Assembly (NCBI GenBank): GCA_035312185.1
Contig: DATGCI010000137.1
Coordinates: 2,557-34,556 of the forward strand
Reading direction: 5' to 3'
From: a bacterium
GTDB taxonomy: Bacteria; Fidelibacterota; UBA2242; JAFGTP01
Length of the DNA stretch: 32,000 bases
The notes beneath the pieces are model-generated. The model was given only the letters and a program-made list of their open reading frames with translations, had not been told where the DNA came from and did not search any database. Of this stretch, positions 15,980 through 29,743 are shown one piece after another. Position numbers and translations under genes: made by a program. Numbering within the stretch: position 1 is the first letter of the stretch; the number at the start of each line of letters is the position of its first letter.

Positions 15980-16891
15980 TCAGTCCAAAAAGCCCTGGAA
16001 ATAATACTTAGCAGGATTCTTTTTTATACCATAACGGCGTACTTCATAATGCAGGTGAGGGCCAGTACTGCGACCACTGGAGCCAATCTCGCCAATTTTT
16101 TCACCTCTTTTAACTTCCTGTCCGGCATCTACATCATACCTAAGAAGGTGGGCATAAACTGTAGTATATCCATTCCCATGGTCTACATAAACAAGCCGGC
16201 CGTAAGAATGACTATAACGTACTTTGCGTACCACCCCATCAGCGGTAACCAAAACCGATGTCCCTGCTGGTGCAGCAAAGTCAAGACCCCAGTGAAATTT
16301 ACGCTCATTTGTAAAAGGATCCCTTCGATAGCCAAAGCCATCACTAATATAAGCGGCTCGGTCAACCGGTCTTATTGAAGGCGTTGATTTAATCTTGTCA
16401 GAATATTTGCGAAAAGATTCGTAGATCTTGTTGTAGCTAATTCTTTCTAGCTTTATCTTACGCTCTAACCGATCCAGGTCACGAATCAGAGTTGAAATCT
16501 CGAGAGAATCACCAGGCATTAATTTATCCATAGCCTGAGTTTTCTGGATAATTTTTCCACCTATACCGATCTTATTAATGTCTTTATCTATGGAGGGTAA
16601 ATTTACATATGTTCGCAAGGCCTGATCCTTTTTCTCCAGGCTAGATATACTGGATTCCATTTCATCTATCTTTGTGCGGGCCTGCTGAACTGTTTTTGCT
16701 AATTTTTGATTACCCTGTTTTACTTTTGTGAGCTGGGCTTTGTATAAATAGCTCATAAAAAACTTTGCTCCCAGCAAACTTAATGTCAAAACGAGGAGCA
16801 AAAACACAACACCGGAGATTACTAATCTCCGTGTATTTAATTCAATTATATTGGAACTATCATCTGTATTTAAAAACAAGAATTTTTTCAC
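15980..16891 (-). CDS. M23 family metallopeptidase (murein endopeptidase, EnvC/MepM-like) with N-terminal TM and coiled coil
   Basis: HWGLDFAAPAGTSVLVTADG matches HxxxD. The C-terminal GSSGRSTGPHLHYEV matches HxH. Confidence 0.9.
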   Translation of the reverse strand: MKKFLFLNTDDSSNIIELNTRRLVISGVVFLLLVLTLSLLGAKFFMSYLYKAQLTKVKQGNQKLAKTVQQARTKIDEMESSISSLEKKDQALRTYVNLPSIDKDINKIGIGGKIIQKTQAMDKLMPGDSLEISTLIRDLDRLERKIKLERISYNKIYESFRKYSDKIKSTPSIRPVDRAAYISDGFGYRRDPFTNERKFHWGLDFAAPAGTSVLVTADGVVRKVRYSHSYGRLVYVDHGNGYTTVYAHLLRYDVDAGQEVKRGEKIGEIGSSGRSTGPHLHYEVRRYGIKKNPAKYYFQGFLD

Positions 16892-16982
16892 AATTCTACC
16901 ATCATAGATTACAAACTGTCTAGTGTTTACAATTTAAATTTTTTATGGTAATATTACAACTAATAATTGCAGAATCACAAAT

Positions 16983-17822
16983 TTACAAATACCTTTGTAA
17001 ATGTGAAATCCGTGAAATATGGCGTAACTTCCTGAGAGCTCGTTCTTTGATCTGACGAATGCGTTCCCGTGTCAGATCAAAAATTTCTCCGATTTCTTCT
17101 AGTGTAGCTGGTCTTTCCTGGTCAACTCCAAAATACAATTTCAGAATCTTTTTTTCTCTGGGTTCAAGAGTGTTCAAAGCATGATTCAATTCCTGTTTAA
17201 AAGATTTTTCAAATTGCACCTTTTGCGGAGAACCGTCCTCCTCTGAGGGTAGGATATCTTTTAAAGTATTTTTACTGTCGTCATCAAGAGGAGCATCTAT
17301 GCTCATTGTGCGATTGTTATACTGTTTAAGGGTGGATTTCTTAATGTCCTCGGATTCCATAATTTCATCCAGTTCCTTGGCCGTTGGTTCTCTTTCAAAA
17401 TCCTTGGCAAATTGCGCAGATACCTTCGATATTTTGTTTATATCCCCCACAATATTGAGTGGTAAACGGATCAGCCGAGAATGCTCAGAAATTGCCTGTA
17501 ATATCGTTTGCCTGATCCACCAAACAGCATAACTAATAAACTTAAATCCCTTGGTTTCATCAAATCGTTTAGCCGCTTTAATTAAACCGATATTGCCTTC
17601 ATTAATTAAATCACCCAGAGATAGATTGTGACCCTGATATTTTTTGGCAACTGAAACAACAAAACGAAGATTAGCCCGTAGCAGCTTATCAAGTGCCTTT
17701 GAATCACCTTTTTTGACTTTTTTAACTACCTCAACTTCTTCTTCAGGACTTAAAGGCTTCTCATTTCCGATTTCTTTGAAATATTGCTTTAAAATATGAT
17801 TGTAACTATTGGATGGCGCCAT
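16983..17822 (-). CDS. rpoD: Primary-type sigma-70 family factor, short form lacking region 1.1 (Bacteroidota sigma-AB-like)
   Basis: 279 aa. Region 2 reads ANLRFVVSVAKKYQGHNLSLGDLINEGNIGLIKAAKRFDETKGFKFISYAVWWIRQTILQAI. Region 4.2 reads TLEEIGEIFDLTRERIRQIKERALRKLRH. From memory, this is very close to the roughly 285-aa primary sigma factors of Bacteroidota. Confidence 0.85.
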   Translation of the reverse strand: MAPSNSYNHILKQYFKEIGNEKPLSPEEEVEVVKKVKKGDSKALDKLLRANLRFVVSVAKKYQGHNLSLGDLINEGNIGLIKAAKRFDETKGFKFISYAVWWIRQTILQAISEHSRLIRLPLNIVGDINKISKVSAQFAKDFEREPTAKELDEIMESEDIKKSTLKQYNNRTMSIDAPLDDDSKNTLKDILPSEEDGSPQKVQFEKSFKQELNHALNTLEPREKKILKLYFGVDQERPATLEEIGEIFDLTRERIRQIKERALRKLRHISRISHLQRYL

Positions 17823-19859: not shown

Positions 19860-21359
19860 GTGGTTAAAGTAAAGGTTATTCCGCTCAATAAAACAATAAA
19901 AGTTAAAAAATCTACCAATCTGGGCAAAGCCCTTCAGGAACTAGGATTTGAATTGCCCTGCGGGGGTGAAGGTAGCTGTGGAAAATGCCGTGTAAAAATA
20001 ATTGACAGCGATTTACCCATCAATTCGGCTGATGGGAAATACATTTCATCGGAAGATATTGAGAAAGGCTGGCGCCTGGCCTGTCAGCATCATGTTGAGC
20101 AGGATTTAACAGTTGAAGTTGAACAGTGGGAAATCAAAATTGAAGAGAAGATTATGGACCAGTCAGCTGTTCAATATTCAGGAGAATATGGAATAGCTAT
20201 TGATGCAGGTTCCACCACAATCGCCGGACGTTTAATAGACCTTTCATCAGGGAATATATTAATGACCAAGGTCGCCTACAATTCCCAAAAAAAATATGGC
20301 GCCGATATCATGACCAGAATGAATTTCGCCAGCAAAGAAGGTGCAGAGAGACTACAAAAAGAGTTAAGAGAATCCATTTACAAAATTGTCAAAAGCATGG
20401 CAGTACAAACTAAATCTACCATATCTAAAATTAATATTGTCGGTAATACTTTCATTCATCATAGCTTTTGTGGCCTTGACCTAAAACCTTTGATGACCAT
20501 TCCTTATAAGGCTACCAGTTTGGATAAATATACTTTTCAATTATCAGAATTGAGCTGGTCATTAGACGGTCATCCTCAGGTAACTTTTCTACCCAATTTA
20601 GGCGGTTATGTGGGTAGCGATATCCTGGCTGGAATTCTTAGCACCGGTCTTTTTAAAAAAGACAAAATTTCTTTACTCATCGACATCGGGACGAATGGCG
20701 AAATTGTTCTTGGTAACCGGGAGCAAATCTATTTTGCCTCCACCGCTGCCGGTCCTGCTTTTGAAGGTGGCAAGATCAAAATGGGAATGCGCGCTGACAA
20801 AGGTGCTATAACTCATGCTCACTGTAAAGATGGAAAGATCATTGCCGATGTAAAAGATAATGCTACCCCTCGCGGCATTTGCGGTAGCGGTTTGCTCGAT
20901 GCTGTGGCCTGTGGACTCAAACTTGGTAAAATTGATCAATCAGGAAGAATCCAGGATGGAACCGATCAACTTGTAATTAAAGAGCCAGTCAAAATATTTC
21001 AACAGGACGTGCGTGAATTGCAATTGGCCAAAGGTGCCATAGCAGCCGGAGTGGAAGTTTTGCTCCAAAATGCCAGCCTCTCACTCGATCAAATTGACAA
21101 TCTCTACCTGGCCGGTGCTTTTGGTAATTATCTTAATATCGACAGTGCCATCATTCTAGGACTACTCAAACTCGAAAAAAACAAAATTCAGAGCGAGGGT
21201 AATACGGCATTAAGAGGAGCGGTTCTATCCCTCTTTCAGGAAAATTTCTCCCAAATAACATCAGTAGTTAAACACATAGAATTAAATTCAGTTGATGAAT
21301 TTCAAAATATTTTTATCCAGAATATGAGCTTTCCGGAAAATTATGAAAATCTGATCTAG
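19860..21359 (+). CDS. [2Fe-2S] ferredoxin domain fused to an ASKHA-fold ATPase (DUF4445/RACo-like, putative corrinoid reductive activase family)
   Basis: The N-terminus LPCGGEGSCGKCRVKI...ACQ shows the plant-type 2Fe-2S cysteine pattern. It is followed by IAIDAGSTTIAG and LIDIGTNGEIVLG phosphate-binding-like ASKHA motifs. The start is GTG, with GGAG upstream. Confidence 0.7.
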   Translation: MVKVKVIPLNKTIKVKKSTNLGKALQELGFELPCGGEGSCGKCRVKIIDSDLPINSADGKYISSEDIEKGWRLACQHHVEQDLTVEVEQWEIKIEEKIMDQSAVQYSGEYGIAIDAGSTTIAGRLIDLSSGNILMTKVAYNSQKKYGADIMTRMNFASKEGAERLQKELRESIYKIVKSMAVQTKSTISKINIVGNTFIHHSFCGLDLKPLMTIPYKATSLDKYTFQLSELSWSLDGHPQVTFLPNLGGYVGSDILAGILSTGLFKKDKISLLIDIGTNGEIVLGNREQIYFASTAAGPAFEGGKIKMGMRADKGAITHAHCKDGKIIADVKDNATPRGICGSGLLDAVACGLKLGKIDQSGRIQDGTDQLVIKEPVKIFQQDVRELQLAKGAIAAGVEVLLQNASLSLDQIDNLYLAGAFGNYLNIDSAIILGLLKLEKNKIQSEGNTALRGAVLSLFQENFSQITSVVKHIELNSVDEFQNIFIQNMSFPENYENLI

Positions 21360-21394
21360 TTTTTGGGATAATGGTAAAAAAACTGGTTCTACGA

Positions 21395-21418
21395 GCTCAA
21401 CCATCTGAGCATTTTTTT
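21395..21418 (+). terminator. Weak intrinsic terminator after the ASKHA gene
   Basis: A 5-bp stem gctca(aaccatc)tgagc is followed by aTTTTTTT. The stem is short. Confidence 0.3.
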
Positions 21419-21600
21419 GAATTTGGCACCTGCCGTATCATATTTTTCAAATTTATACCGATTTGTAAAAGTTTTACCTGGTTTTGTTTTTATGAGAACT
21501 GCTGAAATATTTATGGTTGAAATTGTTTTGATAATTAATGCAATCTAGTTTAAACCAAAAATTATTATGAGATTTTATCTACTTAATTGCAACAAGTTAG

Positions 21601-21780
21601 AACCACGAATGTGGTTCAATGTGAGTAACTCCGGGTAGGACCCGGAGCATAAACGTAATCCTTCTTAGCTAATCCCTCCTGTGCTTCGCCTGGGAAGGAT
21701 TGCCGGGTAATTCCTTTCTACCGATTCCATCGGCAGTTACTAATATTGAACTCTTCCAGAGTTCTTATTTATCTTTTTTC
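21601..21780 (+). ncRNA. Candidate structured RNA of unknown class (stand-alone sRNA or cis-regulatory leader), ending in its own terminator
   Basis: A GC-richer island sits in very AT-rich spacer. A long-range helix pairs 21614-21630 with 21735-21751 (16 of 17 positions, including one G-U and one G-A mismatch). It encloses hairpins ccggg/cccgg (21631-35:21641-45), aatccttc/gaaggatt (21657-64:21694-701) and ccgat/atcgg (21721-25:21729-33). A 5' hairpin aaccac-gaat-gtggtt lies at 21601-16. Duplicated strands (CCGGGTA x2, TAATCC x2) offer alternative pairings. Confidence 0.45.
21748..21780 (+). terminator. Intrinsic terminator-like hairpin plus interrupted U-tract at the 3' end of the RNA candidate
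   Basis: The hairpin gaactct-tcc-agagttc (7 bp) is followed by ttatttatcttttttc. Its 5' arm overlaps the 3' strand of the long-range helix by 4 nt. Confidence 0.4.
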
Positions 21781-21922
21781 CCAATTATACAACAATTTTC
21801 ATCATAGAAATTTAATCTCGATTATAAATATATCCTTATCCAATATAATAGGAGTGCAAGTTAAAAAAAACTGTGTTTCTATTTTTTAATATAAAGTAAC
21901 ACTTATCTTATTTTAACTATTT

Positions 21923-21960
21923 AAAGGGTGTTTAAAGACCTTTTAAAAAGGTGTTAAAAA
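21923..21960. repeat. Direct repeat AAAGGGTGTTTAAAG / AAAAGGTGTTAAAAA, starts 23 bp apart
   Basis: Read directly from the sequence. It lies about 270-300 bp upstream of the sigma-54-like element, so it is a possible activator binding site. Confidence 0.25.
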
Positions 21961-22100
21961 TTTTTTCAATATTTAATTATTTTGATTTAATACTTTTAAT
22001 CCAATTTTTTTATGTTTAATAAATTCAATTGTATTTAAATTACTATTATTTTGCGATATACCTCTCCTAATAATGCTAATTTTGCAAAACATTTTGATTT

Positions 22101-22113
22101 GGAAATAATTTCC
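22101..22113. promoter_or_regulatory. Palindrome GGAAAT-A-ATTTCC (possible upstream activator site)
   Basis: 6+6 perfect arms, about 115-125 bp upstream of the sigma-54-like element. A TTTATCAGG direct repeat lies nearby at 22130-22138 and 22168-22176. Confidence 0.2.
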
Positions 22114-22225
22114 TAGAGTCATGAAAAAATTTATCAGGAAGTCTATTATTTGATAATAATTCTATTTTTTATCAGGTCTTCTTTGTATAGGGAGATCTAC
22201 TTTTTTTAGCATAATTCTTCAATTT

Positions 22226-22240
22226 TGGCATATTAATTGA
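22226..22240 (+). promoter_or_regulatory. Sigma-54-like -24/-12 element TGGCAT-N5-TTGA upstream of flgB
   Basis: The spacing matches TGGCAC-N5-TTGC exactly. The -24 GG is present, but -12 reads GA instead of GC. No TAnnTTTG box is present here, unlike at the housekeeping genes. Confidence 0.3.
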
Positions 22241-22261
22241 CACCTATAATATAGGAAAAAA

Positions 22262-22651
22262 ATGAGGACTTGTATGAAATTTGACATTTTTAACACCAAC
22301 AAATCGGATCTGCTCAAGAACGGGCTCAATGTTTATACAAAGCAAGTTCGTAATAATGCCAAAAATATCGCTAATATTGACAATCCTACTTATAATCGAG
22401 CGAAAACGGATTTCTCTGATGAATTAGTGGCTGCCAAAGAAAAAGCCCGTCTAAAAGCCACCAATAATAAGCATATTCTAAAACCACATTACCAGCCCAA
22501 AATGGGAATAAAAGAAAGAAGCAAAAAAGAGGTCGATCTGAATAAGGAAATGAGCCAGCTGGCCGAAAATCAAATTCGATACAACTTTGCTTCCCGGGTA
22601 TTAAGAAAACATTATGCTGGTCTCAAGAAAAGTATCAGTGGTAGAATTTAA
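22262..22651 (+). CDS. flgB: Flagellar basal-body rod protein FlgB
   Basis: The stretch VRNNAKNIANIDNPTYNRAKTDF carries the rod-protein N-terminal signature (ANNIAN...T.GY-like). C-terminal heptads read LAENQIRYNFASRVL. An alternative start at 22274 (MKFDIF) has GAGGA 5 nt upstream. Confidence 0.9.
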   Translation: MRTCMKFDIFNTNKSDLLKNGLNVYTKQVRNNAKNIANIDNPTYNRAKTDFSDELVAAKEKARLKATNNKHILKPHYQPKMGIKERSKKEVDLNKEMSQLAENQIRYNFASRVLRKHYAGLKKSISGRI

Positions 22652-29485: not shown

Positions 29486-29743
29486 ATGGATTTCATAGCA
29501 TTTTTCAAACAAAAATGGATAAAAATGAACACTAATCTACAAATTAATACAAATCAATTTTCCGAACTTGTGGAAATAATTTCCGAATCAAAATCATTTC
29601 TATTTGTGATTAATTTAATATATTTACTGCTGTTTATAGTTTCTAACATATTGTTATTTATTAACTTATTTTTATATAAAGTTAAACTCATTAAAAATAT
29701 CAAGAAAAATTTTTACCCTGGCATATTAATTGAAACTGTATAA
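29486..29743 (+). CDS. Possible small single-pass membrane protein (doubtful)
   Basis: 85 aa (72 aa from the ATG at 29525). It has one strongly hydrophobic segment, FLFVINLIYLLLFIVSNILLFINLFLY. The DNA is extremely AT-rich, no SD was seen, and it could be a chance ORF. Confidence 0.3.
   Translation: MDFIAFFKQKWIKMNTNLQINTNQFSELVEIISESKSFLFVINLIYLLLFIVSNILLFINLFLYKVKLIKNIKKNFYPGILIETV

Follow-up and report, generated by a model that had tools for sequence, protein, structure and literature searches.

Termite-flg and flg-Rhizobiales are Rfam motifs associated with flagellar genes, and a GC-rich patch in AT-rich intergenic DNA is a classic signature of structured RNA. In Clostridioides difficile, flgB is preceded by a 498-nt 5′ UTR with the c-di-GMP riboswitch Cd1 and termination at 160 nt, while the flagellar switch of this organism spans 154 bp with 21-bp imperfect repeats, AAGTT(A/G)CTAT(A/T)TTACAAAAAA (PMC5386303). 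Here, we describe a structured block upstream of flgB in a 32,000-nt stretch of DNA (the window, in whose coordinates all positions are given) from an uncultured bacterial member of the Fidelibacterota/Marinimicrobia lineage.

The locus resembles the C. difficile flgB 5′ UTR in that, several hundred nucleotides 5′ of flgB, it carries a structured element with a terminator as well as a segment flanked by inverted repeats. Unlike Cd1, however, the block matches neither the c-di-GMP-I nor the c-di-GMP-II model; the flgB promoter, which is of the sigma54 type, lies 3′ of the block, so that the block may be outside the flgB transcript. It is seen in one orientation only, in contrast to that flagellar switch, and is not conserved in relatives. 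With Termite-flg and flg-Rhizobiales it shares the character of an orphan structured motif 5′ of flagellar genes, but these motifs are conserved across many sequences, whereas the block occurs in one species only and leaves both models unmatched.

Genomic context of the block

The block lies in a 902-nt non-coding gap (21360–22261). On its 5′ side, the gap is bordered by the gene of a RACo/ASKHA-type iron–sulfur protein (19860–21359, plus strand), and on its 3′ side by a plus-strand flagellar operon starting at 22262/22274 with the order flgB-flgC-(94 aa)-fliE-fliF-fliG-fliH-fliI-fliJ. FlgC of the host is identical to HMA61986.1 (“MAG TPA: bacterium”), and its nearest named relatives are found in Fidelibacterota/Marinimicrobia MAGs. 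The upstream gene is separated from the block by a terminator of its own:

21395..21418, plus strand: intrinsic terminator of the RACo/ASKHA gene, GCTCAACCATCTGAGC (stem 21395–21410) then T7 (terminator scan)

With 46% GC (21600–21770, likewise 21600–21779), the block stands out from the rest of the gap (23%) and from the window (37%), which bears out the sequence-only reading of a compact, GC-richer block in an AT-rich non-coding gap of about 900 bp. A pseudogene or coding remnant was considered and rejected, as all six frames contain stops and no convincing ORF is present. Likewise, no tRNA or tmRNA fragment was found in the block.

At the 3′ border of the gap, the FlgB homologue (22262–22651) has no Pfam match at E ≤ 0.001, and the public annotation places the flgB start at 22274 (125 aa), after a GAGGA Shine–Dalgarno sequence, rather than at 22262. 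Within the gap, the AT-rich stretch 21876–22088 has a GC content of 12–22%, and assemblies fail there: the NCBI MAG contig (L110) carries 100 N at this stretch, the JGI contig L010 ends at 21765, before it, and the sister-species contig L004 begins at 22086, its far edge. Contig breaks at the block were considered as a sign of a repeat, which we rejected because the breaks and the 100-N scaffold gap sit in this 12–22% GC stretch; their position points to a drop-out of coverage rather than a repeat. The AT-rich spacer further contains a palindrome (21913–21976) with arms of 35 nt, within which AAGG(G)TGTT(T)AAA occurs twice in direct orientation (~21922–21935 and ~21948–21960); these copies could be protein-binding sites upstream of the flagellar enhancer.

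Fold and intrinsic terminator

On the plus strand, the block folds with a minimum free energy (MFE) of −60.6 kcal/mol (z −4.4), and none of 200 dinucleotide shuffles was as stable. It also leads a scan of 532 window-strands of 180 nt, with z −5.1 on the plus and −4.1 on the minus strand, while the next unrelated segment reaches −3.95. Chance structure is left with the remainder of the probability after the readings weighed below. The MFE fold consists of a 5′ hairpin (H0), a four-way junction (P1–P4), and an intrinsic terminator:

21600..21617, plus strand: H0, 5′ flanking hairpin GAACCAC-GAAT-GTGGTTC, 7 bp (MFE; pair probability 0.98–0.99)
21618..21628, plus strand: P1 5′ strand, core of 10 bp with 21737–21747 (core pair probability 0.50–0.66)
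21629..21647, plus strand: P2 hairpin CUCCGGGU-AGG-ACCCGGAG (MFE; pair probability 0.69–0.97)
21655..21703, plus strand: P3, 14-bp stem with three U–G pairs and the CU-rich apical region UAAUCCCUCCUGUGCUUC (MFE)
21721..21733, plus strand: P4 hairpin CCGAU-UCC-AUCGG (MFE; pair probability 0.74–0.96)
21737..21747, plus strand: P1 3′ strand, core (MFE and pair probabilities)
21748..21779, plus strand: intrinsic terminator, stem GAACUCU-UCC-AGAGUUC (21748–21764) and U-rich tract UUAUUUAUCUUUUUU (21765–21779) (terminator scan)

Pair probabilities in P3 reach 0.95–1.0 for 13 of the 14 pairs (0.59 for the innermost), and those of the terminator 0.98–0.99 for six of seven (0.80 for the innermost). In the DNA, the terminator stem GAACTCT-TCC-AGAGTTC is followed by TTATTTATCTTTTTT. 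Several elements had been recognized from the letters alone and recur here. The 17-position helix 21614–21630/21735–21751 is present with one G–U (21621/21744) and one G–A (21623/21742), the three hairpins it encloses correspond to P2, P3, and P4 of the MFE fold, with H0 as an additional 5′ flanking hairpin, and the hairpin at 21748–21764 plus U-tract is a canonical intrinsic terminator in the terminator scan.

The same reading had seen in this arrangement the layout of a conformational switch such as a riboswitch, since the closing helix overlaps the 5′ arm of the terminator. The overlap does exist, but it is restricted to the outer 4 bp of the helix, which have a pair probability of 0.01 against 0.98–0.99 for the terminator; the ensemble is thus free of competition between the two (terminator ~0.98, competing 4-bp extension 0.01). 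Forcing the full 17-position helix, which would have to borrow GUUC from the 3′ arm of H0, costs +3.5 kcal/mol over the MFE. In the MFE structure, P1 core, H0, and terminator coexist, and the coexistence of P1 core and terminator means that no antiterminator is obligatory. The duplicated motifs held to provide alternative pairing partners are present (CCGGGTA at 21631 and 21703, TAATCC at 21656 and 21670), but occur at chance frequency (P = 0.47 for the 7-mer and 0.26 for the 6-mers, 2000 shuffles), and the proposed role was not upheld. A kinetic or ligand-driven switch may still exist, but nothing in the sequence requires one.

A separate regulatory module of flgB

Whether the block could serve as a leader of flgB, as had been supposed, depends on what lies between the two. 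This region carries the following features:

21877..22261, plus strand: flgB upstream regulatory region, 385 nt, outside the block (74% identity with the sister species)
22100..22115, plus strand: palindrome TGGAAATAATTTCC (conserved region 5′ of flgB)
22174..22198, plus strand: terminator-like hairpin between block and flgB (terminator scan)
22226..22239, plus strand: sigma54-like (−24/−12) promoter TGGCATATTAATTG, 22–35 nt upstream of the flgB start codon

Both the palindrome and the sigma54-like promoter are located 3′ of the block's terminator, and the module lies 325–450 nt downstream of it. Its core is kept upstream of flgB in four relatives (L001, L003, L004, L012), including some at ~70% protein identity. 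A second copy, composed of a palindrome at 29571–29586 and an identical TGGCATATTAATTG at 29719–29732 (plus strand), precedes the next flagellar transcription unit, a 1315-aa ORF from ~29793. In the two copies, the palindrome is positioned 126–148 nt upstream of TGGCATATTAATTG. Moreover, the gene directly 5′ of flgB in more distant relatives encodes a sigma54-dependent response regulator. The repeated and conserved occurrence of the module indicates a probable control of flagellar genes in this lineage by sigma54 and an enhancer-binding protein, and flgB is served by a putative enhancer–promoter module of its own, separate from the block. Since this conserved module lies 3′ of the block and the hairpin 22174–22198 intervenes, the block is unlikely to take part in flgB regulation and is most likely not a leader or riboswitch of flgB, though a further promoter upstream of it, with read-through to flgB, may exist. 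As a by-product of the analysis, the flagellar module is more solid than the block itself.

The 1315-aa ORF extends from 29793 past 32000 (L110 11314–15261) and contains no Pfam domain. It sits between fliJ/MgtE_N-like genes and flgD-flgE of the flagellar cluster; judged by this position, its product may be a FliK-like hook-length protein of giant size.

These data bear directly on a ligand-responsive conditional terminator, a riboswitch-like ON switch in which the 17-bp P1 would act as antiterminator and permit read-through to the flgB operon. An aptamer-like four-way junction does abut the terminator, the P1 extension would take GUUC from H0 and GAAC from the terminator in an alternative only 3.5 kcal/mol above the MFE, and the C. 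difficile flgB 5′ UTR offers a precedent (PMC5386303). We nevertheless regard such a switch as quite improbable: the P1 extension has a probability of 0.01 and the terminator of 0.98, no Rfam aptamer matches, the duplicated motifs are at chance level, the block is absent 5′ of flgB in every relative examined, and flgB has its own palindrome and sigma54-like promoter, with the hairpin 22174–22198 in between.

Family and homologue searches

Rfam 15 was searched with all 4227 models at three settings. At the gathering threshold, cmscan returned no match in the whole window, and a cut-off of E ≤ 10, applied to 911 nt as well as to 201 nt, let through noise only (viral CITE, snoRNAs, and RAGATH-19, whose 15.6 bits fall far below its gathering score of 85.6). 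Neither c-di-GMP-I, c-di-GMP-II, nor any other riboswitch model was matched at the gathering threshold or at E ≤ 10 on 911 nt and 201 nt, and the Termite-flg and flg-Rhizobiales models remained unmatched at every threshold used. The original description, a block of strong structure that ends in an intrinsic terminator and fits no class, therefore holds (z −4.4, no Rfam family).

The models for 6S, 6S-Flavo, and Bacteroidales-1 were unmatched even at E ≤ 10 on 201 nt, which counts against a housekeeping RNA, perhaps of the 6S-like kind, that has diverged so far in a poorly sampled phylum that Rfam models miss it. A length of ~170–190 nt, paired 5′ and 3′ portions, a GC content high for the genome, and an autonomous terminator would suit such an RNA. 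The predicted fold, however, is a four-way junction and not a rod with a central bubble, and a housekeeping RNA should be recognizable in the sister species, where nothing similar exists in the sequence covered. We thus consider this reading very unlikely.

Searches for homologues gave only chance matches. With nhmmer and blastn, the block matched only itself among all loci compared, and a single-sequence covariance model run over 162 kb likewise recovered self matches only. In genome contigs, an exact-pattern scan for CCGGGTA..AATCC..GGATTNCCGGGTA, which is insensitive, gave 0 matches, while TAATCCCTCCTG..GGGAAGGATT gave one, in an apparently coding region of an archaeal-labelled contig and without flanking similarity. 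An 18-mer search of metagenome contigs yielded 17 matches of 19–21 nt and one of 35 nt at 86%, a weak negative because this collection evidently lacks the source sample; 15-mers in viral contigs produced chance matches only, and blastn against phages and plasmids found nothing. Within the same genome, a single copy is present in ~50 kb (the window plus ~18 kb of extra flank).

Absence of the block from the sister species

Loci of relatives were collected by synteny via FlgC and RACo (12 contigs). The closest relative, the sister species (RACo 82%, FlgC 93%), keeps the RACo-to-flgB order, but lacks the block despite this shared synteny. Its gap, assembled from contigs L005 and L012 of one sample with a 30-nt overlap, measures 564 nt; positions 21381–21876 (496 nt) are replaced by ~145 nt. 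The replacement segment has no fold (z −0.3), and the local alignment of the sister gap with the block is not significant, as 21 of 300 shuffles score as well. Relatives at 62–72% protein identity have other neighbours on both sides and nothing similar to the block: there, a convergent aminotransferase gene comes after RACo, and the gene of a sigma54 activator stands in front of flgB. No homologue of the block precedes flgB in any relative examined. Within the species, the three remaining assembled contigs, represented by four excerpts, show 100% identity with the window at the block and are therefore uninformative.

Among the collections searched, the block is apparently confined to one species. 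The lack of conservation in relatives, including a sister species with the same gene order, speaks against a conserved riboswitch. Further, with no homologue and a sister species devoid of the block, a function gains no support from conservation or covariation. Confinement to one species also makes comparative validation impossible and limits the practical value of the element.

In two relatives at ~70% identity (L001 3740–5107; L003 3897–5264), FapA, a GAF response regulator, a response regulator, and a sigma54-dependent activator precede flgB. This FapA-to-activator cluster is swapped for the RACo gene in the window's species and its sister, and the synteny break falls exactly at the gap.

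Palindromic architecture and strand assignment

The block forms an inverted repeat with 34-nt arms at 71% identity, in which the outer 17 positions match at 15 of 17. In this DNA, about three inverted repeats of such quality (16–17 nt, 88%, no more than 250 nt apart) are found per 12 kb, which is chance level. The minus strand folds equally well (−64.9 kcal/mol, z −4.4), and the reverse complement matches the plus-strand single-sequence covariance model with 57.6 bits over all 169 positions, in addition to an nhmmer self-reverse match. The block is a structural palindrome, and for this reason the strand is not settled. Four G–U pairs of the plus strand in P1 and P3 become A–C mismatches on the minus strand, which would favour the plus strand for an RNA. 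No sigma70-like promoter was found on the plus strand in 21411–21599, with the reservation that the promoter consensus may not be that of this phylum; the minus strand has a sigma70-like match at 21828–21801, and the terminator scan found no terminator on that strand.

An imperfect palindrome of this kind raises the main rival to an RNA: functionless or selfish quasi-palindromic DNA, which would fold well only because it is palindromic. Such DNA could have inserted as a MITE/REPIN-like element or been left behind as a scar when rearrangement brought the RACo gene next to the flagellar operon. Like MITEs and REPINs, the element is intergenic, ~165 bp long, bears terminal inverted repeats, and is an imperfect palindrome over its whole length. 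The arms (34 nt at 71%, outer positions 15 of 17) and the match of the reverse complement to the structure model over all 169 positions fit this origin, as do its presence in one species and absence from the sister species at the same locus, the coincidence of this locus with a synteny breakpoint relative to relatives at 62–72% identity, and TTA at both ends of 21600–21764 (21597–21599 and 21765–21767). Unlike MITEs and REPINs, however, the block is a single copy in ~50 kb of genome, has no copies in any collection searched, and is associated with neither a transposase or RAYT nor a convincing target-site duplication, since a 3-nt flanking repeat is weak evidence in AT-rich DNA and none surrounds 21614–21751. 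Moreover, both flanks are unalignable with the sister species, so that the insertion is not clean, and, unless recent, a GC-rich remnant should have been eroded in a background of 23% GC. On balance, we judge a DNA relic rather unlikely, although it is the competitor to be taken most seriously.

The 17-bp inverted repeats could alternatively be recombinase sites of an inverton upstream of the flagellar operon. They flank 104 bp 5′ of flgB, and the right arm AGTTACTAATATTGAAC (21735–21751) shares AGTTACTA and TATT with the C. difficile repeat, a resemblance noted post hoc and by eye that may be coincidence in AT-rich sequence. Inversion of 21631–21734 would create the junction GAGTAACT then GCCGATGGAATCGG. 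A single orientation, however, is shared by the window and the three further contigs of the species (L010, L011/L111, L110), all of them assemblies. In addition, no recombinase is found among the Pfam-annotated neighbours, and the interior is GC-rich, self-structured, and without promoter-like sequence. The terminator, situated at the edge of the repeat or beyond it, would form in either orientation, and the element precedes the enhancer–promoter module of the operon by 325 nt. An inverton is therefore highly improbable.

The minus strand was further inspected for GGA motifs. The plus strand of the block contains four, which is no enrichment, while the minus strand contains seven in 171 nt (mean 2.7), two of them in loops. 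At least seven TCC per 171 nt are reached at 2.6% of window positions in 11 clusters, which places the TCC count of the block in the upper tail without making it exceptional. A TCC-rich plus strand is common to both unalignable gap segments, with 7 in 171 nt here and 6 (and 0 GGA) in 169 nt of the sister species (L005 2922–3090).

A GGA-rich minus-strand RNA could act as a sponge for a CsrA-type protein linked to flagellar regulation. Besides the seven GGA counted above (mean 2.7), two hairpins present GGA as loops (CCGAU-GGA-AUCGG and GAACUCU-GGA-AGAGUUC), the non-homologous gap of the sister species carries 6 TCC and 0 GGA on its plus strand, and the minus strand combines the sigma70-like match at 21828–21801 with a fold of −64.9 kcal/mol. 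The same TCC density, however, recurs at 2.6% of window positions (11 clusters), no minus-strand terminator exists, the plus-strand G–U pairs turn into A–C mismatches, and no csrA gene was seen in the sequence covered. GGA triloops, moreover, are not the usual geometry of CsrA sites. In our estimate, a CsrA sponge has very little probability.

A species-restricted small RNA as the tentative assignment

The block is bounded on its 5′ side by the upstream gene's terminator and on its 3′ side by the sigma54-type module of the flagellar operon. We tentatively favour, at less than even confidence, a species-restricted, independently terminated plus-strand small RNA (sRNA) of ~170–200 nt. This reading is based on a GC-rich, structured, non-coding island with its own terminator, on the strand bias of the G–U pairs, and on the termination of the upstream gene. 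If functional at all, the block would belong to a known class, the orphan intrinsically terminated sRNAs of bacteria. It shares with them a compact GC-rich body in a long AT-rich intergenic region, a terminal stem with U tract, and autonomy from the terminator and promoter of its neighbours. It differs from them in that no homologue was found and in being a structural palindrome of uncertain strand.

In the proposed mechanism, transcription would begin at a putative promoter in ~21540–21599 and end in the U tract 21765–21779. The RNA would act in trans via CU-rich segments exposed at the P3 apex (UAAUCCCUCCUG, with its anti-Shine–Dalgarno-like CCUCC), in the junction (UAAUUCCUUUCU), and in two UUCCA loops, one of P4 and one of the terminator. 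Ribosome-binding sites rich in purines (GGA/GGAG) might be their pairing partners. When duplexes with 28 translation-initiation regions were predicted, the RNA performed no better than shuffled RNA.

A more ambitious proposal, a new lineage-specific regulatory RNA of a flagellated Fidelibacterota/Marinimicrobia bacterium, appears quite improbable. It would be either a ligand- or protein-controlled antiterminator or the first trans-acting sRNA described for the phylum. In the former version, H0 would serve as anti-antiterminator, the 17-bp P1 would be the antiterminator to the terminator T, and read-through would add to the sigma54-driven transcription of the flagellar operon; the latter would operate through anti-Shine–Dalgarno-like CU-rich loops. 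Should the block prove to be a real RNA, it would rank among the first non-coding RNAs noted in uncultured Fidelibacterota/Marinimicrobia and exemplify a very young sRNA, specific to one species, beside a flagellar operon.

Elsewhere in the window, the minus strand at 15980–17822 carries an M23 peptidase gene followed by the gene of a 279-aa sigma70-family factor, resembling an nlpD-rpoS pair. This pair is kept in all relatives examined (L006, L007, L009).
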